From positions 50,123 to 70,122 of the forward strand of contig JABANN010000112.1 of the NCBI GenBank assembly GCA_013115125.1: a stretch of 20,000 bases of DNA, given 5' to 3'. Numbering within the stretch: the first letter of the stretch is position 1; every line of letters starts with the position of its first letter. The position numbers were made by a program, and so were the translations under genes. Of the stretch, positions 1-20,000 are shown one piece after another. Source of the stretch: Perkinsus olseni (Eukaryota). The notes beneath the pieces are model-generated. The model did no database searches. It worked only from the letters and a program-made list of their open reading frames with translations, and was not told where the DNA came from.

Positions 1-53
1 GGAACTCCGAAACGGGGGTCCCGGATTCGATTCCCACTGCCTGCATTCATTAC

Positions 54-1497
54 TCGCAATGAAGCGTTCCCTTTCTCTGCATAACTTTGCATTTTCTACA
101 ATAAATCCTCCTCTGGCTCGGCAGCCACTGCTCTTCTCCAAAATCATCATCAGCCTCATCATAACTTTCCTGGGGGTGTACTCGCAGAAGGCCGGGATCC
201 GAGAGGAGCGCACAGCGAAGAAATGTGAATAACGACGAAATCTGAGCGGAGAGTGCTCGCCGGCCGAAGACGTGATTTCGATACGCCTGGAAGGTCGACA
301 CTCTATCGTTTGCTAGCCATAGTCAGGCTTCGGCGAATCAGATTCCACCTTGAAACTTCCCTGAGCGCGAAAGACAGAAGGCTTAACGTTATCAATTCGT
401 CTACAGGCCCCCTTCAGAATACTGCAAGTCACCCACAAATTACCGCACAGAAAGATGCAATCATGTAACGAGTTGCAAACCTCTATCCCCACTTTCAATG
501 AACCCCAGGAGAGGACTGGTTGCCGAATGGCATCAATGCAGCGAGCTGGAACTTACCGTCAAAATGGTGCCTACGAGCCCTTGAACCTTCCGTTGGTTTT
601 CTGACACCTCTAGCCGTGGTGTGAGCATCCAAGCAAATCCAAAACCAATACCAATGATCACTCCGACCATCACAATAATAGCGTACCTGTAGAGGAAAAT
701 GCATATGCGTGTAATAATCCATACCACTCCTTTCCTTACCAATGCGGACCTATATAAAGTACTACTCCCAGGGGGCCTTTGAAGACCCTGACGCGTCCGT
801 AATGTTGCACCTCCCGCGTCGCCCGCATTTCCCGAAATTCATGGGAGGCCTCAAAACTCATGAAAATCAAACCGTTCTCGTCCAACTCCATCTCATCATT
901 CGAATCATCATCTCGCGAAGAGCAGCTACTCGACGCAGAGTCCCAGCTTTCGAAACTATCGAAGCGCTTTCGATGTGAATCTCGCTCGCCCGTAGGATAT
1001 GCCTCCAAACGAACCTCATCCGAATCGCCGAAAACCCGATCGTTGTCGAACGATTCCTGAAATGAGGCGAAGCAATGAGCACCGAAATCTAATCAGTACA
1101 CACGAACTTCCCAAAATACGGCCTTTAACCAACCGATTTTCCGCGTGTAGTAAACCCCTCCCCCACGTTTGTAATCTCGCTTAGAAATCAGTAGCAATGC
1201 TGTAGCGTAGTATTCTCTTCGGCTTTGAACTGGACTTTTGAAATGCACGAACAAGATCAAGTAGCAAGGTAGATGACCACTCGAGTGTACAAACGGACAT
1301 TTTTAACGAGCCTCTAAATTCGACCCCCCTCTCCTTTCCCTCCAAACTACCCGTAGATAATCCACGGATCCTTCCTCATCTCGACCGCGTTGGTATCCCG
1401 AACTTGATGAAGATGCGCCATCAAGCGTCCGCGGCGTGATCGGCAAGGTCAGCTTCGGCGGGCCAGCTCCGTAGTTGCCATCAGCCTTTTGACTCAT
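54..1497 (-). CDS. DHHC-type palmitoyl S-acyltransferase, 5' part (spliced; runs off the window's left edge). Exons 1497-1351, 1056-740, 686-557, 241-54
   Basis: GT-AG junctions join in frame to give ...LYIGPHW-YAIIVMVGVIIGIGFGFAW (TM)...VGTILT-ISSLFTFLRCALLSDPG...CRKCKVMQRKGTLHCE. TM-TM-DPG followed by CxxC...HC is the start of the DHHC cysteine-rich domain. The DHHC tetrapeptide itself lies outside the window. Exon 1 is the least certain. Confidence 0.8.
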
Positions 1498-1912
1498 TTC
1501 GGAAATGCAACCGTTTTAAATTGCAGAATTAAATCTAACAAATATAGGTTCAATGAAGGCACGCCAATTAGCGAGACTCCTGAAGGAACGAAGTGACCGG
1601 ACAGTTACTTCGGCAATGCGCTGAATAGTTCCTGTAGACCCCTCAATCACGGTGTGTTTGATCAAGCTGACTCCCGAGTTCATTAGAAAGGACTCCGACG
1701 AAGAAGTGGCGTAGCGCAGAAGAATGCACTTGGGAGTGCAGTGAAGCCCAGAAACCAATCCGGCTATCCCTTAGAGCAATGCAACTCCCACAGGCCAATC
1801 GTCACGCGCCACAAAACTCCTCCTGTTACATGGTCATAGTCAACACAATAGCAAGTGGATGAAACACAGAAACTCCCGGCGGTTTCAAACATGACAATCA
1901 CACCAGAAAACC

Positions 1913-3768
1913 TCACACAAACTCGACCTGAAGGAGTGATAGATTTACACAAAATAAGCGAGCATCAATCCTCGATTCAGTTGGTCCAGAACCGCACGGA
2001 GCTAGACGAATTTTGGAAGACTAGCCAATGACGATTTCAGATCCTTTTCACTAGGACCTATCCCAGAAAATCCGAATGAGTCCGTAGTCATTCCTCAATG
2101 ACATGGTAGTTGTATTCAATAACCCTTATTGAATAGCGCGATGACGGAATGATGTGGTATCATCCACAAGAGAGGTGAATTACCTGAGCCCCAGTGGACT
2201 CCATCTTCTTCTTGATCTCTTCAGCGTGCTCTAAAGGTACGCCTTTCTTGATAACCTGGCATTCACCAGGTGCATGAGTAGCGCACGAAAACTCATATCG
2301 ATTAACCGTTTCACAACTACTAACTGTTCTGGGACCCTAGAGGAACATATGTCTATCAAAGAGCTCCAACGGACTGCTGATGTAATTGGGTAAATTATTC
2401 CGCCCCTCCTCGATCTAATACCGTTGGACATCCTTCCACCGCATCCTTCGCCTCCCGAAGGCCAAGCCCAGTGACTGCTCGGACCTCCTTGATCGTCGTA
2501 ACCTAACAAATGCCATCTCCCAGATTCGAACCGGAGTCCTTTAGATTACCTTCTTCTCTGTATTGTAACTAACCAACTTGATTGTCACGACGCTCTTCGC
2601 AGGCTCTTTCTTCTTCTCGGCCGGCTTCTCCTCAGCCTCCCCACCTCCCTCCGCCGCTGTCGCTTCCCCTGAAACGCATCACACCAACCGTCCCACTCAA
2701 TTCTTATATTAACAAGGCCAGCTACCGGCAGGAGGCGAGGTCGGCTGCTGAGGAGCCCCGCCAGGCATCGGAGTGCCCATCATCATTGGCGAGGGTATCA
2801 TACCACCACCACCGAACATGGCCCCTGGATGGGGGAAGGGAGATCGGCCAGGGACACCTCCGGACCTGACAGGCCCTCTACCCCTTCACAACAGCTCATC
2901 AGATGATACTGCTATACAGCCTCCACAAGTAGTTGAAGAAAACCCATAGCACAGAACGCGTCGTTCTTGCGAACTATCATCGCCATTTATCATGTTACGA
3001 AGTGGCGGCTTGCCTCCAAGCCCACCCCGACGTTCTTGAGGAGGGATACAACCCGAGGAGCATTCCTCATGACCAAGCGTATTCTGCTTGAAACCTAAGG
3101 TGTCACTACCTGGCAGCGAGTTTCTCCTGACATAAGTCGCAGAGATCCGCAGCTTCAATAAGCGACAATGACAATATATCATCAACCAGTTTAATGACCT
3201 AGAAATACCCATCACGGGGTTCGAACCGGATACCATTCGATTACCTTATCAGACGGTTTTCGTTTCTTGGCTTCCCCAGGCGAAGCATCCATCTTTCCAT
3301 CTCCCTTATCTTTGATTTTCGCGAAGACGTCAAAGGAAGAGTCCCTGGCCGGCGCCTCAGCGCTGAATGCTCTCACTGCCGTTAACACGAGCGGAGCCTG
3401 AAGGGGATCTATCACCAAGATTCCGCCTGTACACAAGAGCTCCAGTAAAAGCGTTAGCTTTCCCGCTGTTAAAAGTTTTCCTTATACATCGCGCTGCACA
3501 CAATCAGTGATTGTACCAATTGGACTACAATCGCCAAGTCTCTCAGCACAAAGGGCGTCAGCCAACGCGCCAAGTTTACACACAACACGCTGGCTACACA
3601 CGATCAACAGACACTCAACGATCACACCGGAAGAAAAGTTGGGAAGAAGTACTTCCTGTGCACAATTTTAACGCATCGGATGAGTCCCCGCCCGCCTACC
3701 TGGTAGTATAACCGCCGAGAAATGGCAAAACAAGACCGACGGATAAGGGCTGTTGAGGAACACATCAT
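1913..3768 (-). CDS. MRPL12: Mitochondrial ribosomal protein L7/L12 (bL12m), 8 exons, about 245 aa. Exons 3768-3700, 3397-3245, 3198-3110, 2865-2726, 2668-2550, 2502-2422, 2255-2184, 1927-1913
   Basis: All junctions are GT-AG and phase-consistent (738 nt in total). The translation has an Arg/Ser-rich presequence ([35 protein letters not shown]), the L12 N-domain ([28 protein letters not shown]), a flexible hinge, and the L12 C-domain ([56 protein letters not shown]). Confidence 0.9.
2503..2549 (-). other. 47-nt spliceosomal intron consisting of a tRNA 3'-half-like sequence
   Basis: Sequence GTAATCTAAAGGAC-TCCGG-TTCGAAT-CTGGG-AGATGGC-A-TTTGTTAG. Removing it restores L7/L12 ([12 protein letters not shown]). 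Confidence 0.8.
3199..3244 (-). other. 46-nt spliceosomal intron consisting of a tRNA 3'-half-like sequence
   Basis: Sequence GTAATCGAATGGTA-TCCGG-TTCGAAC-CCCGT-GATGGGT-A-TTTCTAG. Removing it restores L7/L12 (PSDK|VIKLVDD). Confidence 0.8.
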
Positions 3769-5419
3769 GAGAAAAATATCAATAGAACATGGAGCAGCAT
3801 ATTAAAACAGACCATAAACGAGATGGTGTCCACCTGTACACGGAAGACTCACTCAATGTCCCGAGGGAGAACCTGGTCCTACGGACGAGTGCATTCGCCC
3901 CACTGACTCAACTAACGCGGAAGAACTTCTTCGTTCCTGGTTACATGTTGTGGTTCATAGTAAAGCATCAGAATAGGTTGCGATAGGACCTGGAGCGTTC
4001 GACTGATTGGAACGAAATGAGTTCCTCTGCCTGAAGTGGATACGAAGCGTCCGAGGTTTAGGTAGTTATCCCAATAGTAATCCTGAGTAATTTTTCGAGA
4101 AGGGTTTAACTATATTGTAGAAGCACGTTGCAGATCCCACTCCCTGCTTTTGGGACTCTTAACACACACGAGAGCCCGAAGAGATCTCTCTGATCGAGGG
4201 CTTATCAGCGAGTACTTTCCTCTTGCCTAGCAAAGATTCCTCAAACATACGCCACATGATGAAGTCACGTCGGTAAAGCTACCGCACAATGTGAAGCATC
4301 CTTTCAGCGTCATCCCACCTTTCGCGCAGAGATCCACGGCACTCCCGAGTCCCTATAGCTAACAGCAATATCTGGGCGGACTACAAATGAGACCAGCCAG
4401 ATAGGTGGTAGTGAGAGTAATGAGACCGCGCACAATACACCATACGCACTGTGTGGCATCCAACAGTACTTCAAGACAAGATCCCGAGTTCGAATCCCAG
4501 AAGGCCAATCCCAAATATATTCTTCAGTTCATATTCTACGCGCTGACTACGAACGCGTCTCAGTCGGGTCTCACAACAGCCTACGTGGCCGCTGCAGGGA
4601 AGCTCTGGTGAAGAGCACTCAAACTTCCACACGTTATTCGGCGATTCCGACACGGCGTATAATTAGACAGCATCCCCGAGCGGCAGGGTTCGGCGGGAGA
4701 CTTTGAGACAACTGATAGCGGGTCTGTCCGAGAGGCCGGCATCGGAAGACTCCTCACGAAGGAGTGGATTCATACGCGATCGAACCTCCCTGTGGCGGGC
4801 CTTGATCCGAACGAAGCAGGCCCTGCAAAAGGCGACGGGGTGAACCGCGGCGCCCGGCGGAGCCTCGTTAGAGTGATGTCACGAGAACCGATTGGTCCAA
4901 TTAAATCTGATCCGCCCTATATCGTATCTTGCGCGGGCAACTTCGTCAAGCTGCAAACCAAAAATCTTTCTAGGAGATTTCAAAAGCAAGAGGAGGGCAT
5001 ACAACGAGTTTCACTCTGTTAATTCGTAACCGTTGAGTATCTAAGCTTCAACCTTGCAGGATACAAAACAGGTCTGATCCAATTCCCACTCACTCGGAGG
5101 GGCTACTCTAACTGAGAGTTTCTAAGATCGGGATTGGATCAGGTCACTCTAACCCAGTTCACCATAAACCTTCCTTCATGCCGGTTCACTCTGAAGCTCG
5201 CTCAGGCCATTCTACCACCCGACTGGTCGACATAGTTCCCCATATCCCAAGCCCTCCACTTCGCGGCTCCAACAGGTCCAACCAAATGATTTCATCGCGA
5301 GACACAGCACACACAGCCTCCGTTGAGGAAATGCAAGATTGCAAGTGGTTATCGATAGCTAACTGGCATCGACGGCGAGAAAGCCTCAAGAGGCATTCAG
5401 TGACTTCTCCTCTGCCATA

Positions 5420-7600
5420 ATGAGCAGTGTCACATTAACTAACGTATTTTCTTTCGTGCCACCCGTGGTGGGTCTCTTGTGGGCCATCAAGGAGTTGGTC
5501 TATGTTCGCAGCATCAAGCTCGCCGGTCCCTACAAGGGCAAGAACGGCATGCAGGATTCCCTTGTCGCTGGTGATGCTCGTGATGTTCAGAAGATCCTCG
5601 TCGCCATGCGCGAGATCTCTTCCAACATCGCCGAGGGTGCCAATGCGTTCCTCGTCGCCGAGTACAAGTACATGATGGTCTACGTTGTTGTCTTCTCGAT
5701 CATCATCTGGCCCTGCATCGGTCTCGGTACCATGCTCTCTTTCGTCGTGGGTTCCCTCACTTCGATCGCTTGTGGTTACATTGGTATGAAGACTGCCGTC
5801 TACTGCAACGTTCGTACCGCCCACGAGTGCTGGAAGAGCCTCACCGACGGTTATGACGTCGCTCTCCGCGGTGGCTCCGTCATGGGTTTCGCCCTTGTGT
5901 CCTTGGCTGTCCTCAACTTGGCCATCCTCGTCACCATCTACAACATCCCCTCTCTCTACAACGGTGATCTTCGTGCTCTTTACGAGGCTCTCACCGGTTA
6001 CGGTTTGGGTGGTTCTTCCATCGCTCTCTTCGGTCGTGTCGGTGGTGGTATCTACACCAAGGCTGCCGATGTTGGTGCCGATCTCTCTGGCAAGAACGAG
6101 TACGGTCTTGATGAGGATGATCCGAGGAACCCCGGCTGCATCGCCGATAATGTTGGAGACAACGTCGGTGATATCGCCGGTATGGGTGCCGATTTGTTCG
6201 GTTCTTTCGCCGAGTCTACTTGCGCTGCTATGGTTATCTGCTCCGCTGCTCCCGATGCTCTTGTTTCCGGCAGCTGGTCCACCATGTTGTTCCCCTTGAT
6301 GGTCTCCTCTGTTGGTATCATCGTTGGTCTCGTCACCATGCTCACCGTTAACATCTTCTACAAGGTTAGGGTGATCGCTGATATCGAGAAGGCCCTTAAG
6401 GGTGTCCTGGTCATCTCCACCTCCTTGCAGACCCCTACCGTCGTTGCCCTCGCTTGGTGGGCTCTTCCCGCTGGCTACTTCGCCATCGACGAGGCTCATC
6501 CCGCCTGCTCCTGGGTCAAGTGTGCCGTCTGCATTCTCCTCGGTCTTTGGTCCGGTCTTTGCATCGGTTACACTACCGAGTACTACACTTCTCAGACCTA
6601 CAGACCCGTGCGTGAGATCGCCGAGTCTGAGGGTGTTTCTGCCGCTACTGGTATCATTTACGGTCTCGCCGCCGGTTACGTCTCTTGCATCGTTCCCGTC
6701 ATCTGCTTGGCTCTCACCATCTGCGTTGCCCATTCCGTCGCCGGTATGTTTGGTGTTGCTCTCGGTGCTCTTGGTATGCTCGGTACTCTCACCATGTCCC
6801 TCACCATCGATGCCTACGGTCCCATCTCGGATAACGCTGGTGGTATCGCTGAGATGTCTGAGTTGGGCCCTGAGGTCAGGGAGCGCACTGATGCCCTCGA
6901 TGCCGCTGGTAACACCACCGCTGCCATCGGTAAGGGCTTCGCCATCGGTTCCGCCGCTCTTGTGTCCCTCGCCTTGTTCGGTGCTTACTGCGTCCGCGCC
7001 AACATTTCCAAGGTTAACATTCTCGATCCCTGGACCTTCACCGGTCTTCTCTTCGGTGCTATGATGCCTTATGCCTTCTCTGCTATGACTATGAAGTCTG
7101 TCGGAAAGGCCGCCAACCAGATGGTTGAGGAGTGCATGTCGCAGTTCCCCAAGATCATCTCTGGTGAGATGAAGCCCAACTACACCAAGTGCATCAAGAT
7201 CGCCACCGACGCTTCTCTCATGGAGATGATCGCCCCTGGCTGCTTGGTCATCCTCTCCCCCCTCGTTGCCGGTCTTCTCTTCGGTAAGAACTGCACTGCC
7301 GGTCTCTTGTGTGGTGCTCTTGTCTCTGGTGTCCAGATGGCCATCTCCATGTCTAACACTGGTGGTGCTTGGGATAACGCTAAGAAGTTCATCGAAGCCG
7401 GGGGTCTTGGTCCCGAGTGCGGCAAGGGTTCTCAGGCTCACAAGAACGCCGTCACTGGTGATACCGTTGGGGACCCGCTCAAGGATACCTCTGGTCCCGC
7501 TATTAACATCGTTATTAAGCTTTCGGCCATCATGTCTCTCGTCTTCGGTGGCGTTATTGCCAAGACTTCCAACGAGAACGGTGGTCCTTTCTGGTTGTAA
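5420..7600 (+). CDS. VP1: Vacuolar/acidocalcisome H+-translocating pyrophosphatase, K+-dependent type, copy A (726 aa, intronless)
   Basis: Motifs GGGIYTKAADVGADLSGKNE, EDDPRNP, DNVGDNVGD, DAYGPISDNAGGIAEM, LDAAGNTTAAIGKG (Ala at the K+-determinant position), GGAWDNAKK and GDTVGDPLKD, with many hydrophobic helices. Confidence 0.97.
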   Translation: MSSVTLTNVFSFVPPVVGLLWAIKELVYVRSIKLAGPYKGKNGMQDSLVAGDARDVQKILVAMREISSNIAEGANAFLVAEYKYMMVYVVVFSIIIWPCIGLGTMLSFVVGSLTSIACGYIGMKTAVYCNVRTAHECWKSLTDGYDVALRGGSVMGFALVSLAVLNLAILVTIYNIPSLYNGDLRALYEALTGYGLGGSSIALFGRVGGGIYTKAADVGADLSGKNEYGLDEDDPRNPGCIADNVGDNVGDIAGMGADLFGSFAESTCAAMVICSAAPDALVSGSWSTMLFPLMVSSVGIIVGLVTMLTVNIFYKVRVIADIEKALKGVLVISTSLQTPTVVALAWWALPAGYFAIDEAHPACSWVKCAVCILLGLWSGLCIGYTTEYYTSQTYRPVREIAESEGVSAATGIIYGLAAGYVSCIVPVICLALTICVAHSVAGMFGVALGALGMLGTLTMSLTIDAYGPISDNAGGIAEMSELGPEVRERTDALDAAGNTTAAIGKGFAIGSAALVSLALFGAYCVRANISKVNILDPWTFTGLLFGAMMPYAFSAMTMKSVGKAANQMVEECMSQFPKIISGEMKPNYTKCIKIATDASLMEMIAPGCLVILSPLVAGLLFGKNCTAGLLCGALVSGVQMAISMSNTGGAWDNAKKFIEAGGLGPECGKGSQAHKNAVTGDTVGDPLKDTSGPAINIVIKLSAIMSLVFGGVIAKTSNENGGPFWL

Positions 7601-8246
7601 ACGCTGTTCGTATGCATATAGTAAAGCAATAGTACATTTACTTAGTCGCTGTTCCTGCCTTGTTCCTTTCCGATGTGTGTTCGGGTAGGTAGCCGTACAC
7701 TTTTCATCGTGGACTCCTTCATGTCGTGTTTGCAGTCGTCAAAAGGTGCCTGTTAAGGCTGAGGGTCACCAAGCTTTCAGGGAAGGATCGTCCTAGTTTA
7801 CTAGCCAGATGGTCCACAGAACTCACGGATAGCGGACTCTGCTCATCGCCTGGCTCGAGCACAGAGCTTGCCACAGTGATACTCTCAGTTCACTAGTATG
7901 GCAGCGGCAAGTTCTTAAACGAACAGAGCATGTTACGCTTGATGTGGAAGAGACATCTGTAACGAGAGAGAAAAAGGAGCTTACAAAACCATGGACGTAA
8001 GAAAGAATAAACTACCTTGGCGTCAGAACTAAAACTGCACTGAGAAAGACAGATTAGCCTTTGCTCATACTGTTCACCCTTATTGCATGTATGCTGATTA
8101 TACAGTCCTCCAGTAACGTTGAGAAGGCTAAGGCTGGTCAGCGATTCCACCAGAGCTTCTGTTGTGCATCGCTGCGCAGCCCAAGATATCATCATGGTGA
8201 AGATGGTTAAACCTCACACCGTTTGATCGTCTCATCCGTTTTGCAA

Positions 8247-10418: not shown

Positions 10419-11287
10419 ATGATGCCAATTCCTCCACAGACTCGATTCCGCATAATATTCGTATACTTTTGTGCGCGGCTTAGATTAGTGCTTACTTGGC
10501 TAGTATTGTTGCGTTAACTCAGTGGGGCGTAGAACATAAGACCGCCCTGAAGGCAAGCCCACCTATCGATCGGTTACTGCTCGGAAGAACACTCTCAATT
10601 GGTGTCGGAGACCAGGGTCGTGACATTGATTAACGACTGAGTCTAAACTGATCTTCTTGGTCGTAAGTTTCGGCGTGGCATTGCGTAGTAGAGTTGGGTA
10701 TCGACGACACTATCAACTGCTTGCCAGAACACAGACGAGGCCACCTTTTTGGAGGCGGGCGAGCCCGATGTCGACCATCTCGTCCGATTAGTTGCATTGA
10801 CTGCTCAACTTTCCCATTCTTATGACTTCCATGGCCGTTCTACCTCGTTCAATATCACGGTGAAATTTTCACCCGACTCATCGGCTTCTGTACACCGAGG
10901 ACTTCGGTGTGTGTGTGAGTTTAAAGTCCAACGCCGACAGTAGGGCTTAGTTAGACTAGCACCGACGTAGCTTTCTGAGGGGGATTAGTTCAGGCTCTTC
11001 TGATCAAACCAAAGAACGTTGCTCTCAGAGCGTGGTCATCGTCAGCTGGGGAATGTTCTTTCCTCCCGGCAGAATCCGCTTCCCACAGCTGCGGGGGCTG
11101 TGCACGACCACGAAACACTAGCCCATCCCGCAGTGTGTCGAACCACAAGCATCATCTCCGGCACTCGAAAAGTCCATACCCTGGCTAAGACTCCCTCTTA
11201 CCGAAAGCTGACATTCTTACTGGCAGAGGCACGTGAATCTAATATCATCCCCTCGCATTATGAATCGGTAAGACTTCGGTATACACA

Positions 11288-11319
11288 CGACACCTGAGAG
11301 ATTCGAACTCTCGCGGGCA
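11288..11319 (-). pseudogene. tRNA 3' fragment (Ser-like end: perfect T-arm plus acceptor strand)
   Basis: Minus strand reads TGCCCGC-GAGAG-TTCGAAT-CTCTC-AGGTGTC-G. No matching 5' acceptor strand (GACACCT) or D-arm lies upstream on that strand. Confidence 0.65.
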
Positions 11320-11392
11320 TGGCTACTCTCTGCTACCCAATGATAAAGGCGCACTTCTCGATGGCGAAAGGATTTGTACACCATTCTCAGTT

Positions 11393-11473
11393 GCCCGATT
11401 AGTTCAGCTGGATAGAAAGTCTGCCTAGCAGATGGTCAGCAGATGGTCGTGGGTTCGAATCCTGCATCGGGTA
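11393..11473 (+). pseudogene. Full-length tRNA-like cloverleaf with a disrupted anticodon loop (probable pseudo-tRNA; isotype undetermined)
   Basis: Acceptor stem GCCCGAT/ATCGGGT, D-arm TAGTTCAGCTGGATAGAAA, anticodon stem TCTGC/GCAGA around a 14-nt loop, T-arm GTGGG-TTCGAAT-CCTGC. A-box and B-box are recognisable. An 11-nt tandem duplication (AGCAGATGGTC x2) lies at 11427-11448. Confidence 0.7.
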
Positions 11474-12228
11474 TTGTTTCAGCTCTTCTTGATGCTGCGT
11501 CCTTTCTCGGTGGTCAAGGGTCCAGTCCAGGATGCTGGCCTCGCGAGGTCACCACTATATATACGACCGATACCCGAGTGTAACACAACGACATTTATAT
11601 ATATGATGCCAAGCGGAAGTCGCTAATCTCCAGGTCCACCTCTGCTTTCGCCTGGAGTAAACAAAAGCTATGGCTGTCCTCTGCTGGCTACTATGTAGCT
11701 TCACAGCCGTACACCCCGGCATGCGAAGTCCATTACCCAAGATTCCCAGGCTGGGAAAGATCGCTTGACGTAGGACATGACCCGAATTCTCATTCGTTGC
11801 CGAGGAACACTACAGAATAGCAGGTGCAGGAGTGAGTGTGGAGCGACGGTTCCGCCTAGCTATCGTATAGTAGGGCGCATCGTCTTTGAACACCTCAACA
11901 GCGATGGCTGTTTGCTTGCCATCATCCATGAGTCGCTCCCTCGAGTTGTTGACGGAGTCCTTGGGAGTAGTACTGCATCCGCACCGAATTCGAGGGTCTT
12001 GCCGTGCAGGCCTCCTCGAGCCGGGTTCCGCTTGCTAGCTTCCGTCAGCCGCACGAGAGTTAGATATTCGGGCTCATACTGTGTAACAATGTGATTTTCA
12101 TTTCCCGGTGTCATTTGAGAAGTTCCCTTGTAGCAATCGTGCGTCGGAGCTTTGGCGCGAGCGAAATTGCCGCGCAGAGGCTGTAGGCTGTGCGCAACGA
12201 GCCCCGTAATTTAGAATCGTAGCGGCGC

Positions 12229-12267
12229 TTCATTGTAGCTCAATGGTAGAGCTAGCATGCTGCTAGC
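12229..12267 (+). pseudogene. tRNA 5' fragment (A-box/D-arm) followed by a short hairpin
   Basis: TAGCTCAATGGTAGAGC (D-stem GCTC/GAGC) at 12236-12252, overlapping the hairpin GCTAGCA-TGC-TGCTAGC. No T-arm follows. Confidence 0.55.
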
Positions 12268-12611
12268 GAAAGAAAGAACCGTACCAAGTAATGGTTGCGT
12301 CAGCCATTATCACGAGCCCTGCACTCCCTGAACGTGGAGGTAGGATACTAGATACCGCTGACTCAACTCAGAGCGGGTATGGAGTCAGCTAATTCCAGTG
12401 TCCTACTGAACAGTTGCGACAGCCAAGTAGTAGTTGGCGGCAGCCGCTGGCTCCTGCTGCCTGGTAGCTGGCCCTGACGCTAATAGGTATTGAACTAGAA
12501 CAGATCAGAGCCACATACTGTTCACACTCCCAACCTCTACATCACGGGGATTTTGTCTCCGCTTCACAGCGCAACTGAAACCGACTCCGGTAAAGAAACC
12601 ATCACATTCAC

Positions 12612-13749
12612 TCAACGCTGGAGGATTCCTCCATTCCTAGAAGCTGCAGTGCTTGGCGTTGCTACAGCATCACGCCAACGTCCTCGAGGCGTCCATGGCT
12701 GATTCGTAAATGGGCCTCTCGCCGCCTTGCTAGGTCCGCGACCTATCAACCCATCTCCAGAGAAGACGGGGAGCCCTTTTGGTTCGGAATCTTCCTCTAC
12801 CATCTCTTGTGCCGCTCGCTCACAGGACGGACACAGCTCAGCACCTTGCGTCGGAGTGCAGCAGATAACGCACGTACCACTCTCTCGCGGGATCGCGTCC
12901 AGAAGTAGCTCTTGACAGGAGTGGCATATGCCATCGTTCTCGTCTATGCTAGCGTCCACGGGAGATCCACAAGTCACACATTTCCTTGTAGATGGTACGT
13001 GCTGTCTGAGAGGAGCAACACATTCACGACTCGGAACATATCAAGAAGGTTGAATAACGGTCAAGGCCGATCGGGTCCGGATAGTTACAAGGCGCACTGA
13101 ATGGAATGGTAGCGCATGAGAAGCGACTTCGGTGAGACAGTGAACGGTAGCAATCGTGTTGTTGAGAATGATACGATGCCCTCGTAACGAGGGTCGCGAC
13201 ATATGGCAGCAGCTCAGTCCAGTAGACGGTCTAAAATGCCTGACATGACTAGTGGGAATGCCAGGAAGGGAAGCACCTCATCATTCGCTGAGCATGCCCT
13301 AAGAAACCGAATTTGGCAAGATACGAGCCATCCTCACTTACGTGGCATGCGTGAAAGTCTCTATGGCGGACTTCAATGCTCTATTGGGGACAACACGTTG
13401 GCTTCTCAGTGGAGCGTTGGTGAGGGGATCGATCTTAGGTCTTCTGAAACTCATAATCAATAGTCCTTGGCGCCGATCACTGCCATCAGGTGCCAAGCCG
13501 AGCGTGCTAATCTTATCATGAGATTCGCGGATGGAGTGGTAGGAGATTCTCATACCACTCCATCCGCTAATCTTCTCCTCGGGTTCACCATGCAAGCTCC
13601 TACCTTTTGAAGGCATTTCTGAGTGCCGAGCGTTCGTAAGTGAAGCCGGTCTCGACTAGCGTGACGGGGTCGGTCATGAGCTCCTGTGTGATAGGACACT
13701 CGAAGGACTCCACCAGCTCCTTCAAAAGGGCCTCATCGTCACCATCCAT
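12612..13749 (-). CDS. U-box domain protein (putative E3 ubiquitin ligase) with downstream CxxC pairs. Exons 13749-13604, 13443-13342, and a large exon at about 13003-12612; middle exons and 3' end unresolved
   Basis: Spliced translation MDGDDEALLKELVESFECPITQELMTDPVTLVETGFTYERSALRNAFKR-RPKIDPLTNAPLRSQRVVPNRALKSAIETF matches the U-box consensus. The downstream exon has CVTC...CHSC and CVIC...CPSC; its linkage to the U-box exons is inferred. Confidence 0.75.
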
Positions 13750-14096
13750 TTGCAGGGGCACGAAAACGTACCAATAACAATCAAGCTACTGACAACTGCG
13801 CAGATGAAATATATTGCGAGTTTCGATTCCGATCAGGGCGAAGCAGCGCGATAGACAGTGTTCTCTGCGGCCCTCTATGATACGTACGTATGATCAATTC
13901 CGACTTTCCGACCTATTCCGTATCTTCGCGGGCCAACCCTAGATACGTAACGTGAATCTTGAAGTTTATTGTGCTGGCTAGGCGCAGGTCACTATGAACA
14001 CTACAACGAACTCTTGTCGGAGGGAAAGAATAATGTCTACTACTGCTACTACTAACGCCATCTACGCCGTCGTCCAATAATCATCATCATCACAAC

Positions 14097-15344
14097 TCAA
14101 TCTCTACTTCCACTTCGGCTCCTGTTTCTGCTGTCCTCTCTCACGCGCGACTTCGACTCCTTCCTCGGCGAATGGCTGTAAGATCTCGACGAAGACCTGC
14201 TCGAGCTGGGACTCCAACGGTCGCGGCTGTAGCTCCTCCGACGTTCTCTGAACCTCCTAGGAGACACCGGCTTCCTCCACCTCCCGCGCACCTCATCGCG
14301 GATACGACTCATCACGATCGAGCTGGGGTTGCGACAATCAGCGCGGATGAGCAGATCGGGCCCGAAGACACGAGAAAGCTGCTCCTGACTGAGCTCCCTC
14401 AATCTGTCCTCGCACTCCGCGTCCAGGCTGTAGCGATCGCACATATCAGATACCGACACTCTGTGGTGACGACTTCTACTTCTCGATCTCGATGACGATC
14501 TCGAGTAGGAACGATCCCTCGGTCGACGCCGACTCTCGCGCGCTGCCACCCTACGTCTGAAGGCCATATCATCTACCTTCCTCTGCACCACCCTCTTCAC
14601 GCGAATCCCCACATATTTCTGAGGAATTCTGATATCCCTTCTAGACCTGACATCCTGGTTGATCGAGTGGACCGTCTCGTAAAGGACGTCCTCGAGGAAC
14701 CTCCTGCCCGATCTGTCCAGTACCGAATACAACAATCTCATAGTCAAGGAATCGTCTAGGAAATCCTCAGCCTCCACAATACGTTGCTTGTGTATCGCAT
14801 CATCTACCACCTCTTCAATAACTTTATCCAAGTCCCCTCGGCTATCCGCGCGGTCCCTTCTCATCACCCTGGGCTTGGTTCTATCAACGTCACTCACGTC
14901 GCTGCTCGATTCTGATCTCGATCGAGAGTCTCTGCGCTCCTTAGGAGCTTCTTCCTCAGTGGCATCCTTTCTACTCGAAACTGACCTGCTGCGAGATCTC
15001 TTCTCATCACCTTCCTTCCCGTGGTCAACTCGGCGACTCTTCGATCGTGATTTCTCAACGCTCTTCGAGGCGGATCTATCAGCGACCTCCTTAGAACGAC
15101 TCTTTTCGACCGATCTCGAGCGGGAGTCCTTACGTTCCACAGAACGCTCGCGCTCTGAAGATTTGCGGTCAGCCGGAGAACGGTCTCTCGAGTCCGACCT
15201 GTCTCTCTTCTCAGATCGACCCTCCCTACGACCTTGACGAGATCCAGACCTCGAATAGCGCCTGAAGGCCTCCGAGCGACGACCACGACTGCTGCTGCGG
15301 CTTCTTCTGCTGCTCATGCTTCTGCTGCGACTCCTGCGGGCCAT
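14097..15344 (-). CDS. RS-rich protein, paralog 1 (415 aa, intronless), with two helical domains
   Basis: Long ATG-started ORF with RS/SR-rich termini. Its non-repetitive core is homologous to the two neighbouring ORFs. Confidence 0.85.
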   Translation of the reverse strand: MARRSRSRSMSSRRSRSSSRGRRSEAFRRYSRSGSRQGRREGRSEKRDRSDSRDRSPADRKSSERERSVERKDSRSRSVEKSRSKEVADRSASKSVEKSRSKSRRVDHGKEGDEKRSRSRSVSSRKDATEEEAPKERRDSRSRSESSSDVSDVDRTKPRVMRRDRADSRGDLDKVIEEVVDDAIHKQRIVEAEDFLDDSLTMRLLYSVLDRSGRRFLEDVLYETVHSINQDVRSRRDIRIPQKYVGIRVKRVVQRKVDDMAFRRRVAARESRRRPRDRSYSRSSSRSRSRSRHHRVSVSDMCDRYSLDAECEDRLRELSQEQLSRVFGPDLLIRADCRNPSSIVMSRIRDEVRGRWRKPVSPRRFRERRRSYSRDRWSPSSSRSSSRSYSHSPRKESKSRVREDSRNRSRSGSRD

Positions 15345-15681
15345 GATTTAGAAGATAGGGAGGAATGGAAGAAGTAGAAGAAGTTCTGCCACTCGACAGG
15401 ACCATAAGCCTGGATTGATCCCTGATGACGGCTTTCCGAGAGTCGCCCTCCTTCCCGAGGGGGCCAGACAAATGATTCCTACCTTACAGAGTAGCGATTA
15501 CTCGGTGCTGCATCATCTAAGGTAATGAAAGCAACCCAATGCGTATCCACCCAGGATCAACGTAAGATTCTCTCTCGCGTGAACTCGGCGAATCTCTCTT
15601 AGCTAGAAATATTAAACGTCCCCTACCATTGTCATAAAATCATACGTATCCAAGCTTGATGCGGCAAAGATACAAGACAGG

Positions 15682-16380
15682 TCAAGTTGACCGAGATCTA
15701 CTCCTGCAATAGCTTCTGCTTACCACGTCCGGCAATCTGCCCCGCATCTCATCTCTAATTCTGGCCATGATCAGACTGCTCACGTTCCTACAATCGCGAT
15801 GGATAATCAAATCACCTCCACACACTCGTTGTAGCTGCTCTTGATTCAACCTCTTCAGTCTCATCTCGCACTCAGCATCGACGCCGTACTTCCTGGCGAA
15901 CTCCTCCACGACAACTCTTCTACCAGGCTTCACACCAGACAATGATCGAGATCTCGAAGGCTCTCTTCGCCGCGCCCTTCTCGGCGACAACCCCATATCC
16001 CTTCTCCTAATAGACCGTTTCACTCGAGCCGCCACCAGCCGCCCTGGGTGGCTAACCTCCCTCCGACTACGGAAATCTCTCGAGATGGAATCGATCGCAT
16101 CATCAACGACCTCTTGGACGAAGTTGGGCCCGTGGATGCGAAAGCAATGAAGCAAGCTCTCCACCACATCTTGATCATCAGTAAAATCCTCAACGTAAAG
16201 GGTGATCCTCGAGTCCTTTAAACTGCCGTCAATGATATCCTCAACACGATCATACGACGATCGCGCACGCCCCGGTGATCGATTATCATTGTTATTCCTT
16301 GTTCTAGAGCGACTCCTACTTCTGTTGCTGCTGCTGCGACGGCTGCGACAACTCGAGCGAGACCTCGATCGGGAGGGCAT
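15682..16380 (-). CDS. RS-rich protein, paralog 2 (232 aa, intronless)
   Basis: Shares VEDFxDD...GxxFVxEVV...IxSIxxDxRSRREVxxP and YGVDAECExRLxxLxQEQLxRVxGxDLxIxxDCRNxSSxxMxRIRDExRGR with paralog 1. Confidence 0.85.
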   Translation of the reverse strand: MPSRSRSRSSCRSRRSSSNRSRSRSRTRNNNDNRSPGRARSSYDRVEDIIDGSLKDSRITLYVEDFTDDQDVVESLLHCFRIHGPNFVQEVVDDAIDSISRDFRSRREVSHPGRLVAARVKRSIRRRDMGLSPRRARRREPSRSRSLSGVKPGRRVVVEEFARKYGVDAECEMRLKRLNQEQLQRVCGGDLIIHRDCRNVSSLIMARIRDEMRGRLPDVVSRSYCRSRSRST

Positions 16381-16732
16381 TCCAAAGACGGTAGAAAACT
16401 GGCAAATATGTGTCCGACTCCAAAGCGTGAAACTTCGGGGGCAATCTCTCCAAGCTGAGACCTAGCTCTCGCATCGAACAACGTTAAGGGAGAACTTATG
16501 GACTAACTGTATGACGCTGAAGGAAAAGATCGGATAGCAACTTACCCATACGGTAGGAGGCTCGGATCATCGTCATCTCACGCCATCTTACCGAGACTCC
16601 TTAAGAGGCTAGATGGCATCTACTCAGGATGCAAGACAGAAGAAAAAATGGCCGAGAAGAAGCCTTCCTCCTCCTCCTGCTCACCCGCCCAGACGCAACA
16701 CCATCACATGCCTCAAAATCATCAACTACCGT

Positions 16733-17437
16733 CTACGAGCGAGACCTGCTCCTATGTCGCCTTCCACTCTTGGATCTCATATCCAGTCGGTCTTCTAAAC
16801 GCCTTCTGCCCTCCTCACCCTCCCCGATATCCTCACACACCTTCCGCAATTGACGTTGGGTCAGCGACCTCAACCTCTCCTCCATCCTATCATCACTAAT
16901 TTCACATTTTTCCATCAGTTTCGTCACCGAAATCTTCTTGGGTGGGCCCGACCTTCTCCGTTCATCTTCCATGTAGCGCATAATTCTATTGACTCTGATG
17001 CCGGCAAACTTGTGCGGTACTAAGATATCTCGACGATCTCTGACGTCGAAGCCGATAGAGTGCAGAACCTCCTCGATAAGCTCAACCACGAAGGAGCCGC
17101 CATATCTCGCATAACACCCCTCAAGATTCCTCATAGTCAACCTGTCCTCGATGAAATCTTCCAACTTCAAAAGATTCGTTTTTTCTACAGCGTGCGCAAC
17201 ACAGGCCTCCAGATCCTCTCTGTCGGCCCGGCGTCTCCGCTCCCTCGGATCGCTCGGCGATCTACCCCTCGATGGACTTCTCTTCTCAGCCGTATCTTTG
17301 ACCTCGGAAGATTCCTTCGGTGAATTGTCGGCCGACTTGGATGGCGTCCTCTTGCCGTTCACAGCGCTGCGGGACGGCGAGCTTCTACTCCTGCTTCGGC
17401 TGCTGCTGCTCCTGCTGCGGCTACTGCTGCGGGTCAT
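16733..17437 (-). CDS. RS-rich protein, paralog 3 (about 234 aa from the ATG at 17437, intronless)
   Basis: Starts MTRSSSRSRS. Core LEDFIEDRLTMRNLEGCYARYGGSFVVELIEEVLHSIGFDVRDRRDILVPHKFAGIRVNR aligns with the paralogs. The second domain is truncated or diverged. Confidence 0.8.
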   Translation of the reverse strand: MTRSSSRSRSSSSRSRSRSSPSRSAVNGKRTPSKSADNSPKESSEVKDTAEKRSPSRGRSPSDPRERRRRADREDLEACVAHAVEKTNLLKLEDFIEDRLTMRNLEGCYARYGGSFVVELIEEVLHSIGFDVRDRRDILVPHKFAGIRVNRIMRYMEDERRRSGPPKKISVTKLMEKCEISDDRMEERLRSLTQRQLRKVCEDIGEGEEGRRRLEDRLDMRSKSGRRHRSRSRS

Positions 17438-17896
17438 AGTCACGGCAACAATAAGCGCTGAAACGAATCTTGACGATCCGACACAATCACAATGAGGACG
17501 ATACCTCGACAAAGTCGCCTACTTCATACCACGGATCATGCAGTGTTGAACGGGACGACCTTAGATACTTCACGTACGGTACTGGAGAAGCTGAGAATTT
17601 CGGTCAGTAATCCGACGTTTTTCATATCCAGCGTTCCTTGACCTAGGATACCCTCTTGCGCTATCACGTATAAGCTAGAAAGGTCCTCGGATCAAATCTA
17701 TGCAGACCCATTCTGAAGTATCAGCGAGTTGCAGCATCCTTCGAGAACTCAACACGACGATAGGCGATGCAAGAGTAAGTACGGCGGTTGTAAGAAACGC
17801 AAATCGATCAACCGTTTCATATCTGCGCTCGAGAACAGTAAAAACTTGTCCGAATAGTTCAACGCAAGGATCGAACTATAGACGATATCATCACAA

Positions 17897-19426
17897 TCAA
17901 TCGGTCTTCTTATCAGCCTGGTCGGCCCCTTTTCCCTCCATCACATCTTTCCCATCAACAACACGATCGACTACAATACTTATGCTCGGAACACCTGAAG
18001 GATATAAATACGTGTGAAGCAGCAACGAAGACAACGCTGTGATCAGCCACATAGTGTAACCGAACTAACGAATCACCGGAAGCAGGTACCATGCTCAAGT
18101 ATGCTCAATCATTATAGGCTCTTGCTATGCAAAAAATGAGCTCCCCCAAGCAGGAGAGACTCAACCTAACGAGCCTAAATCGGCGATACGAAGGGTTCTG
18201 GCGGTAGCGCGGGAATTGCACACTGCTGAGTAAACAGGCTCACGATGATAGTTTTCAGAGGTGGACGATGGATTGGAGGGTCGGAAAAGAGATGGCATGA
18301 TCAGAGGTCAGAAAGGTCTGATTATATCGTCCGAACTGGAAGAGGATTCCAACCGGGACCGCGATGTAGCTCGGCGTACGCAGATGCAATGGACAATGAA
18401 CAGATTTCATAGATGTACAATGGACTCGGTAGATGCGAAATTTCGAGTGTTGGTAGGCAACACGCTAAACAAGATTAAAGGCAAACACGAAGCAGCCGGG
18501 AGACTTAGCGAGATGGGTGACGTTAGATTTCATCATCCGCGAGACCCTGGGTTCGATTCCCCCTTTTACCATGCTCCTCACTAGCCCTTCCTGCGGGATA
18601 GTCAGGTCTAACCATCACCACACCGGTCTCGATGTTGACAATTTTACCAACACCTGCCGACTCAGCCGCGGTAGCAGCAGCAACGGCATAAGTGATGGCA
18701 GCCGCGAGACCGGTCACTTCAACATGCTCAACTGGCTTCTTAGCAGGGAGCTCACCTTTGGCCTGAAACAGGAAAAAAGATACTCTGCACACTGTAATCA
18801 GCTCGTCCGCAGAGACGCGCATATCGGACAAATCTGAGCATCTCGGACATCTAAACTAAGTTGAAGACATCTCACGAACTAATCCAGTAAGAAAGCCGTC
18901 GAACTCTCAAGGCTTACAACTCTCATGCGACGAAGGCATAATAAAATGCCGAGCCAACTCCATTCGCACAACTGCCATTGTGACCCTATTTTCAAGGTCA
19001 CACTCCGAATCACCAGCGCTCTAGGTTCGAAACCGCCCAAATTACGATAGACAACTAGATCTTTGCGATCAATATAGAATCTATACGTATCAACCACCAC
19101 TCGGGGTGAGAATGATAGGACGTGGCGCTACGCGAGATGTGTTCCCACACTACCGGCATGCCCTTCAAGAAGTTCTGAACGGCTCGGATATAAAAATTGG
19201 CTGAGTGCTTCGACGTACAGCGAATAACGGGCCTGAGCAGGATGACGAGGATGAGTTGAATGAAGATATCCTGCACCTCGAAACTCAGTGCATTAGAACA
19301 GAGCAAGGACGAGCTTCCTCGATCGAATAGTGAATAATAAACCTCCCCTCAAGTGACGTTGGATTGCAGCGCTACGATCCACCAGATGCCACCATAGACT
19401 TACATATCAGCGTCGGCGTTCGCCAT
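17897..19426 (-). CDS. Alba-family DNA/RNA-binding protein, 4 exons, 126 aa. Exons 19426-19404, 19232-19154, 18762-18582, 17994-17897
   Basis: Phase-consistent GT-AG splicing (381 nt) gives MANADADMPVIRCTSKHSANFYIRAVQNFLKGMPAKGELPAKKPVEHVEVTGLAAAITYAVAAATAAESAGVGKIVNIETGVVMVRPDYPAGRASVPSISIVVDRVVDGK... This fits the Alba pattern (FY helix, VxxxGLxxAIxxAVxxA, KIxxIxT, PxIxI), recalled from apicomplexan Alba3-type proteins. Confidence 0.8.
18535..18571 (+). pseudogene. tRNA 3' fragment, antisense within Alba intron 3
   Basis: ATCCGCGAGACCCTGGG-TTCGATT-CCCCCTTTTACCA, with B-box GGTTCGATTCC. It ends 10 nt from the intron donor at 18581. Confidence 0.55.
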
Positions 19427-20000
19427 CTTTGGAGAGGGTAAATTAACGAGGGATTGGTAGTAACGAAAAAACAAATGCACAAAGTCTTGAAATCTTGCTA
19501 GCTTGATGTTTCTCCACGTCTGCGCGTTCAGGGGCTCGCGTTCAAGATAGGACTCTGAGTGCGTGTTCAGTGTAATTAAGTGACTGTAGTCATCGTGAAT
19601 CGGATGGTTGGAATCATTTTGAGACAGGCCATCTCTACGAGGGTCGTATCTTGTGGAGCAGCGTGCCTCGTTGAGAACATCGCCTTACGAGCGATTAGTA
19701 GCATCAGATCAGCCGACGCGTTGTCGTTCTTAATGGGCATGATACAATTCGGCAACTTTGCTCGTCGCAACTTTAGGTCACGTTGCCCAGACGTGCCTCA
19801 GCGCACAATTCAGCGACGTTGCTCTTTCTTGACTCACACTCAGCGACCGGCTCTTCACGGCAATATCTAGGTCGCCGCTACTTTTCCCGTCTTGCCGACC
19901 AATTCCTTCCAACTTGCTCTTTTTCGGGTCTCGTGTTGCGGTTTTTCTTAAAATCCTACAAAAGCGACGCGTGCGGGAATTGAACTGGGGGTCTTTTCAC

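Follow-up and report, generated by a model that had tools for sequence, protein, structure and literature searches.

Intronic B-box motifs resembling isolated tRNA promoter elements in a window of Perkinsus DNA

A short motif matching the T-loop, or B box, of a resident tRNA gene recurs in the window, that is, the whole 20,000-nucleotide stretch of DNA that was analysed, far more often than simulated sequence would predict, and it lies predominantly in introns of protein genes. Most of the copies are bare motifs, not tRNA halves. We tentatively prefer, as a possible rather than a probable account, the reading that the pieces are B-box elements of tRNA-gene descent that came to lie in introns and have been preserved as a DNA motif, in the manner of extra-TFIIIC sites.

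Sequence, sequencing runs and host genes

The window is nuclear perkinsid DNA, Perkinsus olseni-like as judged from spliced-leader tails and protein names, and the statistics given below cover this one 20-kb window with its six non-tRNA loci. The intron set comprises 16 introns of the window, with splice joints as listed for contigs of the sequencing runs. Splice support was counted over four runs, and run X7 was only guessed to be RNA. Runs X9, X14 and X16 have no depth over 4003-5336 and 10006-12673, and the absence of a joint from them in these two intervals is uninformative. The claim that the introns are backed by protein homology stands for the minus-strand L7/L12 host gene, which matches PF00542 (37.7 bits on one exon), whereas the weak Alba match scores 18.6 bits, below the cut-off of 25; the DHHC identity of another host gene was not confirmable inside the window. 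The features are collected in Table 1, in which p1, p2, p3 and p7 are the four pieces borne out as lying inside spliced introns.

Table 1. Position, setting, motif match and T-stem pairing of the tRNA gene and the tRNA-like pieces (strand of the window; joints supported in the given number of runs).
Feature	Position	Strand	Setting	11-mer match	T-stem pairs
p1	1..45	+	antisense to minus-strand host gene; starts 8 nt inside intron, donor at 53	24-34, 2 mismatches	2/5
p2	2503-2549	-	47-nt GT-AG intron of L7/L12 gene; joint 2500>2548 in 4/4 runs	2522-2532, sense, 1 mismatch	5/5
p3	3199-3244	-	46-nt GT-AG intron of same L7/L12 gene; joint 3196>3243 in 4/4 runs	3217-3227, sense, 1 mismatch	3/5
p4	4473-4507	+	between minus-strand L7/L12 and plus-strand H+-PPase genes	4487-4497, 1 mismatch	
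p5	11287..11366	-	80-nt decayed tRNA-like relic; relaxed-threshold cloverleaf c[11287-11366]		5/5
Intact tRNA gene	11392..11474	+	ARAGORN; Rfam 45.7 bits (11393-11473)	11452-11462, source of reference 11-mer	5/5
Further intronic 11-mer	18344-18354	-	sense, inside intron 17995-18569; 215 nt to donor, 349 nt to acceptor	1 mismatch	
p7	18535-18571	+	antisense, donor end of 575-nt intron 17995-18569 of Alba-like gene; joint 17992>18568 in 4/4 runs	18550-18560, 1 mismatch	3/5
Further intronic 11-mer	19024-19034	+	antisense, inside intron 18763-19153; 119 nt to donor	1 mismatch	
p8	19965..20000	-	not counted as member	3 mismatches	
Loci at no more than 1 mismatch			2522(-), 3217(-), 4487(+), 11452(+, tRNA), 18344(-), 18550(+), 19024(+)		

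A B-box motif enriched in introns

The query was the 11-mer GGTTCGAATCC, which is the T-loop/B box of the window's own tRNA. With up to two mismatches it gave 15 matches against 6.43 expected (15 being reached in 1 of 200 shuffles), corresponding to 12 distinct loci against 4.65-7.65 expected under Markov orders 1-4. With no more than one mismatch there were seven loci, the tRNA's own included, against 0.25-0.42 expected, a number reached in neither of two sets of 300 simulations, run at Markov order 1 (maximum 4) and order 3 (maximum 3). The motif is strongly enriched, and these counts make it highly improbable that the whole pattern is a chance or composition artefact of CG- and TCGA-rich sequence. 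About half of the matches at up to two mismatches are nonetheless expected by chance, and several of the two-mismatch matches look random, as does p8, which is absent from the matches at up to two mismatches, has no splice joint among the joints listed and is in our reading at chance level.

Introns make up 17% of the window and hold five of the six non-tRNA loci (P=0.0008); against non-coding DNA alone the bias is still seen (P=0.017). The intronic copies, when the two-mismatch copy p1 is included, are equally divided between the sense and the antisense orientation (three each). The A-box consensus is not enriched in the window (9 against 7.1 expected, P=0.26), and all six non-tRNA loci carry the B-box consensus without a functional tRNA gene or an A box. 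What is conserved among the copies is the 11-mer plus a short stretch 5' of it, which together read approximately GGTC-YCC-GG-TTCGAATCC. Six non-tRNA loci differ from the query at one position and five at exactly two, the latter being about the chance number; since, in addition, the outer pairs of the T stem match at the chance rate (see below), the motif has been kept better than its flanks, although this is partly an effect of ascertainment, as the search selects copies with an intact 11-mer.

The tRNA gene, its relic and the decayed stems

With default settings ARAGORN calls a single gene and types it as Leu(CAG); if introns are permitted, the call becomes Ala(AGC) with a 7-nt intron. Relaxed runs give 7-15 calls, some of them inside coding exons. 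The segment 11393-11473 had been listed as one of the tRNA-like fragments; ARAGORN and the Rfam score identify it as an intact gene. Head-to-head with it at a distance of 25 nt stands the relic p5, with a perfect T arm at 11296-11312 and six of seven acceptor pairs, and the supposed 3' half at an intron end, 11288-11319, is the 3' part of p5, where no splice joint is listed. A tRNA 5'-half-like piece was also observed near 12232-12256.

Only p2, p5 and the live tRNA have a 7-nt TTCRANY loop closed by a T stem of 5 bp; in the five remaining intronic copies, 2-3 of the five positions pair. Two of these five pairs are fixed by the 11-mer itself. Of the 18 outer pairs, three at each of the six non-tRNA loci, 7 form, in line with the chance rate (0.375), and three of these seven come from one copy. 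At E<=10, the Rfam tRNA model RF00005 reported only 11393-11473 in the whole window and no tRNA match in the 791-base slice 2480-3270 that holds p2 and p3. The name of tRNA 3' halves, given to the pieces in the original prediction, is therefore not sustained, the outer pairing being at chance and the Rfam model reporting no other piece. Capture of cDNA from mature tRNA does not fare better, since none of the nine pieces tabulated has CCA after discriminator position 73; several pieces have T-rich, gene-like trailers. Split or permuted tRNA genes were tentatively rejected, as no complementary 5' acceptor strands were seen by eye and the stems are decayed. When the surroundings of 11 loci were compared over +/-150 nt, no common repeat body emerged, and only cores of 19-28 nt aligned.

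Two related pairs of intronic copies

The copies at intron ends had been taken to resemble different isotypes and not one repeat; they form instead two related pairs, the top two of 120 intron pairs. The best is p2/p3, which agree at 22 of the first 25 intron positions (z 10), and the second-best is p1/p7, with 16 of 19 identical (z 5.6). Judged by this similarity, p2 and p3 are copies of one another, whether through duplication, transposition or gene conversion, and each other's closest relatives. Both mini-introns are preceded by AAG and followed by GT(T/C)A, with AG|GT at both ends; in 7 of 15 introns of the window the acceptor is directly followed by GT. The Logan relative shares the p3 intron, at the same codon; its tail ends after four codons (VMRR) and is uninformative on conservation of the p3 motif. 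A metagenome scan with the letters common to p2 and p3 returned one match (L001), which was rejected as a family member and taken as chance, being a high-GC bacterial contig without tRNA.

Both p1 and p7 are antisense and lie 8-9 nt from donors. For at least two of the four long-intron copies to do so, the rough chance is 0.02, with 300 nt assumed for the cut p1 intron, which runs off the window; the exon end of p1, at 54, is given by X9 and X14 contigs that leave there, among the loose ends listed. The p7 intron likewise occurs at the same codon in P0002, the Logan relative, and it is found also in P. marinus, a public gene model of which (P0003) runs into this intron. Beyond ...EEHG the read-through continues as KRGNRTQGLA in the window, as KRGIRTRVLA in P0002 and as RWGIRTCAC in P0003. 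In all three, the antisense B box is encoded by the G-(N/I)-R-T codons, which occupy the same position in each tail, whereas adjacent intron codons differ, and the exon protein of the gene shares 72% identity with that of P. marinus in alignment A2 (70% by BLASTP). The p7 antisense B box thus appears to be kept in two other Perkinsus lineages, at one locus and as read from protein tails, not DNA. The block adjoins the 5' splice site, where other constraints act, which counts against the account that we prefer; for the neighbouring Alba intron, chosen as a control for ordinary conservation at intron starts, no candidate protein was found. The proposed comparison of intron presence and absence in related species accordingly found the p3 and p7 introns at the same sites, and because these sites are occupied in relatives the two introns are not recent gains.

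Two further intronic copies, 18344-18354 and 19024-19034, were absent from the eight pieces described earlier. The original prediction held that the tRNA 3' end always points at the nearest splice site. Four pieces conform, p2 and p3 as sense mini-introns and p1 and p7 as antisense copies behind donors, whereas two intronic copies are internal and one of these points the wrong way; the rule of fixed polarity rests on these four cases. Three of the eight original pieces, moreover, lie outside any listed intron. Among them, p4 had been placed about 20 nt before an acceptor; one X7 contig runs unbroken over 3861-5276, spanning p4, there is no splice joint there among the joints listed, and p4 is probably intergenic. 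The possibility that 18344 and 18550 are inverted ends of one element was rejected (pairing z 0.8).

Possible origin and role of the intronic motifs

Of the earlier readings, TFIIIC binding and an introner-like element are still live options. According to the account that we prefer, short elements around the B box would descend from tRNA genes or from a tRNA-derived repeat and would now occupy, in both orientations, chiefly the introns of protein-coding genes in Perkinsus. The 11-mer would have been under selective constraint while the tRNA fold was lost, and, by analogy with extra-TFIIIC sites, it may be recognised as DNA by the TFIIIC component that binds B boxes, with no transcription by Pol III. 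The presence of a live and a relic tRNA gene in the same window counts for this account. On the other hand, a TFIIIC site in a transcribed gene could hinder Pol II, and a role for TFIIIC leaves unexplained that two copies make up nearly whole mini-introns and that two others lie so close to donors. A rather unlikely alternative is that of introner-like mobile mini-introns, in which an element of about 45 nt built around a tRNA-like core enters AG|GT sites in either direction and is spliced out. Its T-rich tail plus AG would provide the acceptor when the element is in sense, and the complement of the tail (GTAAAA/GTAATG) would provide the donor when it is antisense. The likeness of p2 to p3 as whole introns, their common AAG and GT(T/C)A flanks, the p1/p7 pair with its shared distance from the donor, and introner families or repeated introns in dinoflagellates (10.1101/2020.10.14.339549) and, in the available text of PMC7789003, in Amoebophrya all speak for it. 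Yet there are two pairs only among 16 introns, with similarity that ends after 19-28 nt and no body beyond, and the one opposed pair tested showed no significant inverted-repeat pairing. The p3 and p7 introns are also shared with relatives, two copies lie well inside long introns, a third is probably in intergenic DNA, and the pattern common to p2 and p3 found nothing in the metagenome scan beyond the bacterial chance match.

Equally doubtful to us is neutral debris, that is, decaying fragments of tRNA genes or pseudogenes spread across non-coding DNA and met with in introns for no other reason than that introns are such DNA, with the polarity as an accident of small numbers. The relic adjoining the live tRNA, the 5'-half-like piece, the copy p4 in intergenic DNA and the mostly decayed T stems agree with it, as does the folding of intron RNA, which is no better than that of shuffles (z -1.66 to +1.11 in six sequences). 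The mismatch spectrum, with its six loci at one mismatch and no excess at two, is however too sharp for free decay, no A-box excess accompanies the B boxes, the intron bias persists within non-coding DNA, and P. marinus has retained the p7 block despite the divergence of the exon protein. A signal at the RNA level, with the motif or its small hairpin acting as an intronic enhancer or branch-region element, would suit the four copies in mini-introns or beside donors, and the retained p7 block comes after a G-run directly behind the 5' splice site. It is distinctly unlikely given that both orientations occur, that the motif is near an end in only 4 of 16 introns, that other introns show, in our reading, a TGAT-type candidate branch motif instead, and that the folds are no more stable than shuffles, the T-arm hairpin of p2 not being the minimum-energy structure. 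We also regard as improbable a combined account, in which a Perkinsus family of intron modules would descend from the 3' part of a tRNA gene and its B box would be kept by selection across species as an intragenic TFIIIC site. Such a module would consist of variable loop, T arm, acceptor strand and T-rich trailer; in the sense orientation, trailer plus AG would become polypyrimidine tract and acceptor and give a complete intron of 46-47 nt, and in antisense the donor would come from the trailer's complement (GTAAAA or GTAATG).

Significance

If the excess holds genome-wide, Perkinsus protein-gene introns would contain thousands of isolated tRNA-promoter boxes, some of them nearly whole introns. 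This would offer a tractable case for the origin of new spliceosomal introns in alveolates, a group with known introner activity, and likewise for the role of B-box-only sites beyond yeasts and animals. Were the reading as tRNA-derived intron modules true, it would amount to a new route of intron birth in which Pol III promoter elements are tied to Pol II gene structure. The annotation of shellfish parasites is affected as well, since introns of 46-47 nt readily escape notice, and among public P. marinus gene models at least one (P0003) enters the p7 intron.

Comparison with known systems

In yeast, ETC sites are located between divergent genes. The available text of PMC12409998 describes the ETC sites of yeasts and humans as B boxes without TFIIIB or Pol III, and the Perkinsus loci resemble them as lone B boxes in either orientation, with no complete tRNA gene and no A box. 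They differ in lying in introns, two of them in introns of 46-47 nt, and not in promoters or between genes, and their occupancy by TFIIIC is putative.

Introner families with 4-nt target duplications are reported for dinoflagellates, the sister lineage of Perkinsus, in the available part of 10.1101/2020.10.14.339549, and repeated introns are described in Amoebophrya in that of PMC7789003. As in the introners of dinoflagellates, Amoebophrya, Micromonas, Aureococcus and fungi, related whole introns (p2/p3) stand at AG|GT-type sites in one genome. In contrast to these systems, no clear target duplication was seen, the one pair tested showed no significant inverted-repeat pairing, two copies per type were seen, and the pieces are far shorter than those of described introner families and have a tRNA-like core. 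The word 'tRNA' does not occur in the available text of PMC9860276 and 10.1101/2020.10.14.339549, and it occurs twice, in another context, in that of PMC7789003. A literature search found no description of tRNA-like pieces within spliceosomal introns, whether of Perkinsus or of other organisms. With tRNA-derived SINEs the pieces share a dispersed tRNA-like promoter motif, while they show no A-box excess, common body or tail and are about 25-40 nt long.

In C. elegans, extra-TFIIIC sites lie on CeRep3 repeats, suspected tRNA pseudogenes that are over-represented in protein-gene introns, according to the available part of PMC6950938. These sites, as described there, combine Box A with Box B in an annotated repeat family, whereas in Perkinsus the B box alone is enriched, with no long shared body; what the two have in common are tRNA-gene-like relics over-represented in the introns of protein genes.

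Gene content and transcripts

The window comes from a eukaryotic nuclear genome. Alignment of RNA contigs from four public runs (X7, X9, X14 and X16) defines at least 15 GT–AG introns, every listed one in a minus-strand gene, as well as three mRNA 5' ends, each carrying TGAGCCAAG as loose letters. On the minus strand, and with the genomic AG added, these letters give CTTGGCTCAAG, with which the Perkinsus marinus spliced leader ACCGTAGCCATCTTGGCTCAAG ends; this leader carries TCTT where the dinoflagellate form has TTTT, according to passages of PMC3101222 and PMC9399869. The nearest proteins carry the species name Perkinsus olseni, at 92% and 95% identity; those from P. marinus and P. chesapeaki are more distant. 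A DHHC gene, originally named as an intron host, could not be confirmed inside the window.

Features of the window with their positions, orientation and supporting evidence
Feature	Position	Strand or orientation	Evidence
Spliced-leader trans-splice acceptor sites	1536, 13790, 16400	−	three mRNAs; 9 loose leader letters plus genomic AG
L7/L12 gene		−	PF00542, 37.7 bits on one exon
Alba-like gene			weak, 18.6 bits, under cut-off
U-box/zinc-ribbon gene		−	
H+-pyrophosphatase gene, tandem, no introns	5420-7600	+	PF03030, 788 bits
H+-pyrophosphatase gene, tandem, no introns	8247-10418	+	PF03030, 782 bits
Arginine/serine-rich open frame, tandem paralogue	14100-15347	−	
Arginine/serine-rich open frame, tandem paralogue	15682-16461	−	
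Arginine/serine-rich open frame, tandem paralogue	16736-17518	−	
tRNA gene, sole true one in window	11392-11474	+	ARAGORN, Rfam
Additional intronic B-box copy	18344-18354	sense	215 nt from nearest splice site
Additional intronic B-box copy	19024-19034	antisense	119 nt from nearest splice site

Gene conversion between the two H+-pyrophosphatase genes is suggested by shared tracts that are 94% identical over 300 nt; X9, X14 and X16 show depth over the first copy and almost none over the second, a contig-derived figure that cannot rank expression. None of the three arginine/serine-rich frames matched Pfam; RNA contigs cover each of them, with a spliced-leader tail at 16400. A near-perfect hairpin at 13521-13573 (26-nt arms, 92% complementary, 1-nt loop) lies inside intron 13441-13603 of the minus-strand U-box gene and gave the only Rfam matches besides tRNA, microRNA-precursor-like and far under threshold (E 1.9-6.7). 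Contigs from every run depart from the window at positions 206 and 16263, where as many as 255 letters no longer resemble it (20 for X16 at 16263), and these departures may represent alternative splicing, alleles or paralogues.

A B-box-specific excess in introns

The T-loop/B-box 11-mer of the window's own tRNA gene (11452-11462) served as query. With up to two mismatches it matched the window 15 times, where 6.43 matches are expected and 1 of 200 shuffles reached that number; these matches form 12 loci, compared with 4.65-7.65 predicted by Markov models of orders 1-4. With at most one mismatch, seven loci compare with an expectation of 0.25-0.42, and none of 300 simulations at order 1, or of 300 at order 3, reached seven, so that nearly all the enrichment comes from near-perfect copies. 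An A-box consensus showed no excess in the window (9 against 7.1 expected, P = 0.26), and the signal is therefore specific to the B box, as had been suspected. All these statistics come from one 20-kb window.

RNA-confirmed introns, 3469 nt in total or 17% of the window, hold five of the six non-tRNA loci with at most one mismatch (binomial P 0.0008; P 0.017 against the ~10.5 kb of non-coding DNA alone). The original prediction had placed about eight tRNA 3'-half-like pieces at intron ends or beside plausible splice sites. Two of them, 2503-2549 and 3199-3244, are to the base the 47-nt and 46-nt introns of the L7/L12 gene, joined over in all four runs; 18535-18571 adjoins the donor site of intron 17995-18569, which is 575 nt long (four of four runs), and 1-45 starts 8 nt within an intron, with the exon end at 54 (loose ends of X9 and X14). 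Three others fell away: 4473-4507 lies between divergent genes and is crossed without a break by one X7 contig, 11288-11319 forms the 3' end of a decayed cloverleaf 80 nt in length, and 19965-20000 differs from the 11-mer at three positions. The single intergenic B-box copy (4487) occupies the divergent gap between minus-strand and plus-strand gene blocks.

The copies had been judged too different from each other to be one recent repeat, but those at intron ends form two related pairs, 2503-2549/3199-3244 and 1-53/17995-18569, which are the best two local similarities among the 120 pairs of 16 introns. Members of the former agree at 22 of their 25 opening intron bases (z 10), or at 24/28 once the last three bases of the preceding exon are included; members of the latter agree at 16/19 bases (z 5.6), located 15 and 5 bases from their donors. 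Two types can therefore be distinguished, a sense copy forming a whole mini-intron and an antisense copy directly behind the donor. No longer shared body was found, the likeness stopping after 19-28 nt. As for the proposed polarity toward splice sites, two of the four long-intron copies hug the donor in the predicted orientation (rough P ~0.02 for at least two so placed, with 300 nt assumed for the window-cut intron), while the other two are internal, one in the predicted and one in the opposite orientation. The mini-introns are unable to test the position rule, and fixed polarity is suggestive, not established.

Relation to tRNA genes

The identity of the live tRNA is ambiguous, as ARAGORN reads Leu(CAG) without introns and Ala(AGC) with a 7-nt intron if introns are allowed; its acceptor stem has no G3:U70 pair, and its anticodon region contains a tandem 11-nt repeat. 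Head-to-head with it lies the decayed cloverleaf (11287-11366), which keeps 6/7 acceptor pairs and a perfect T arm. Together (11287-11474) they occupy the convergent gap between gene blocks. In trypanosomatids, tRNA genes can lie at strand-switch regions, which the positions of the 4487 copy and the tRNA-relic pair resemble. A tRNA 5'-half-like piece at 12232-12256 (+) carries D-arm-like GCTC/GAGC together with a one-mismatch A box; it is antisense in a region linked by an X7 contig to the transcript of the minus-strand U-box gene; 5'-type debris thus exists too, despite no overall A-box enrichment.

That the copies are tRNA 3' halves is mostly not demonstrable. Besides the relic, only 2503-2549 has a 5/5 T stem; the remaining intronic copies form 2-3 of five pairs, two of them dictated by the 11-mer itself, and across the six loci the three outer pairs match in 7/18 cases, the chance rate. 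The Rfam tRNA model reported none of the pieces, whether the window or a 791-base slice was searched. No copy has CCA after the discriminator position, so mature tRNA and tRNA halves are unlikely templates. A few bases 5' of the box are common to the copies (GGTC-like, then YCC ahead of GG), and tRNA-gene ancestry is a reasonable inference, because a live and a decayed tRNA share the window.

Conservation in relatives

Gene callers read through the Alba intron in two relatives, one from Logan (P0002) and P. marinus (model P0003). After the common ...EEHG, the window reads KRGNRTQGLADDEI, P0002 KRGIRTRVLASVRLFN and P0003 RWGIRTCAC; the antisense B box is spelled by the codons G-(N/I)-R-T at equal offset in all three, and P. 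marinus has different codons on either side. For the closer relative, agreement extends over approximately the first 33 intron bases, about 18535-18571, and is then lost. Read from protein at one locus, this is the best evidence that any copy may be under constraint; a control search for ordinary intron-start conservation, at the neighbouring Alba intron, gave no candidate protein. The 3199-3244 intron is present at the same codon in the Logan relative (P0006), whose tail ends before the box would show. P0003 (against window 18526-18762) ends in the intron read-through …EEHGRWGIRTCAC, and the P. olseni and P. chesapeaki Alba-like models carry a last exon missing from it; the P0003 gene model is probably mis-annotated.

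Possible roles and known systems

Because the introns fold no better than shuffles and both orientations occur, a DNA-level motif is favoured over an RNA-structure role; in the 47-nt intron, the T-arm hairpin differs from the minimum-energy fold. The copies may act as B-box-only DNA sites, candidates for TFIIIC binding without Pol III. We regard this tentatively as the closest working model, and it leaves the mini-introns and donor-hugging copies unexplained. An introner-like origin appears rather unlikely, though AAG and GT flank both mini-introns and introners are present in sister lineages, according to parts of PMC7789003 and 10.1101/2020.10.14.339549. Putatively, the T-rich trailer of a tRNA gene followed by AG would supply a ready acceptor, and its complement, GTAAAA/GTAATG, a ready donor.

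The literature, apart from supplements, yielded no report that tRNA-like pieces occur in Perkinsus introns or give rise to spliceosomal introns. B-box-only sites with TFIIIC but without Pol III are described in sections of PMC12409998, and in Caenorhabditis elegans, as portions of PMC6950938 state, such sites are over-represented in introns and lie on CeRep3 repeats, suspected tRNA pseudogenes. Both tRNA-relic/B-box sites in introns and introners are already known kinds.
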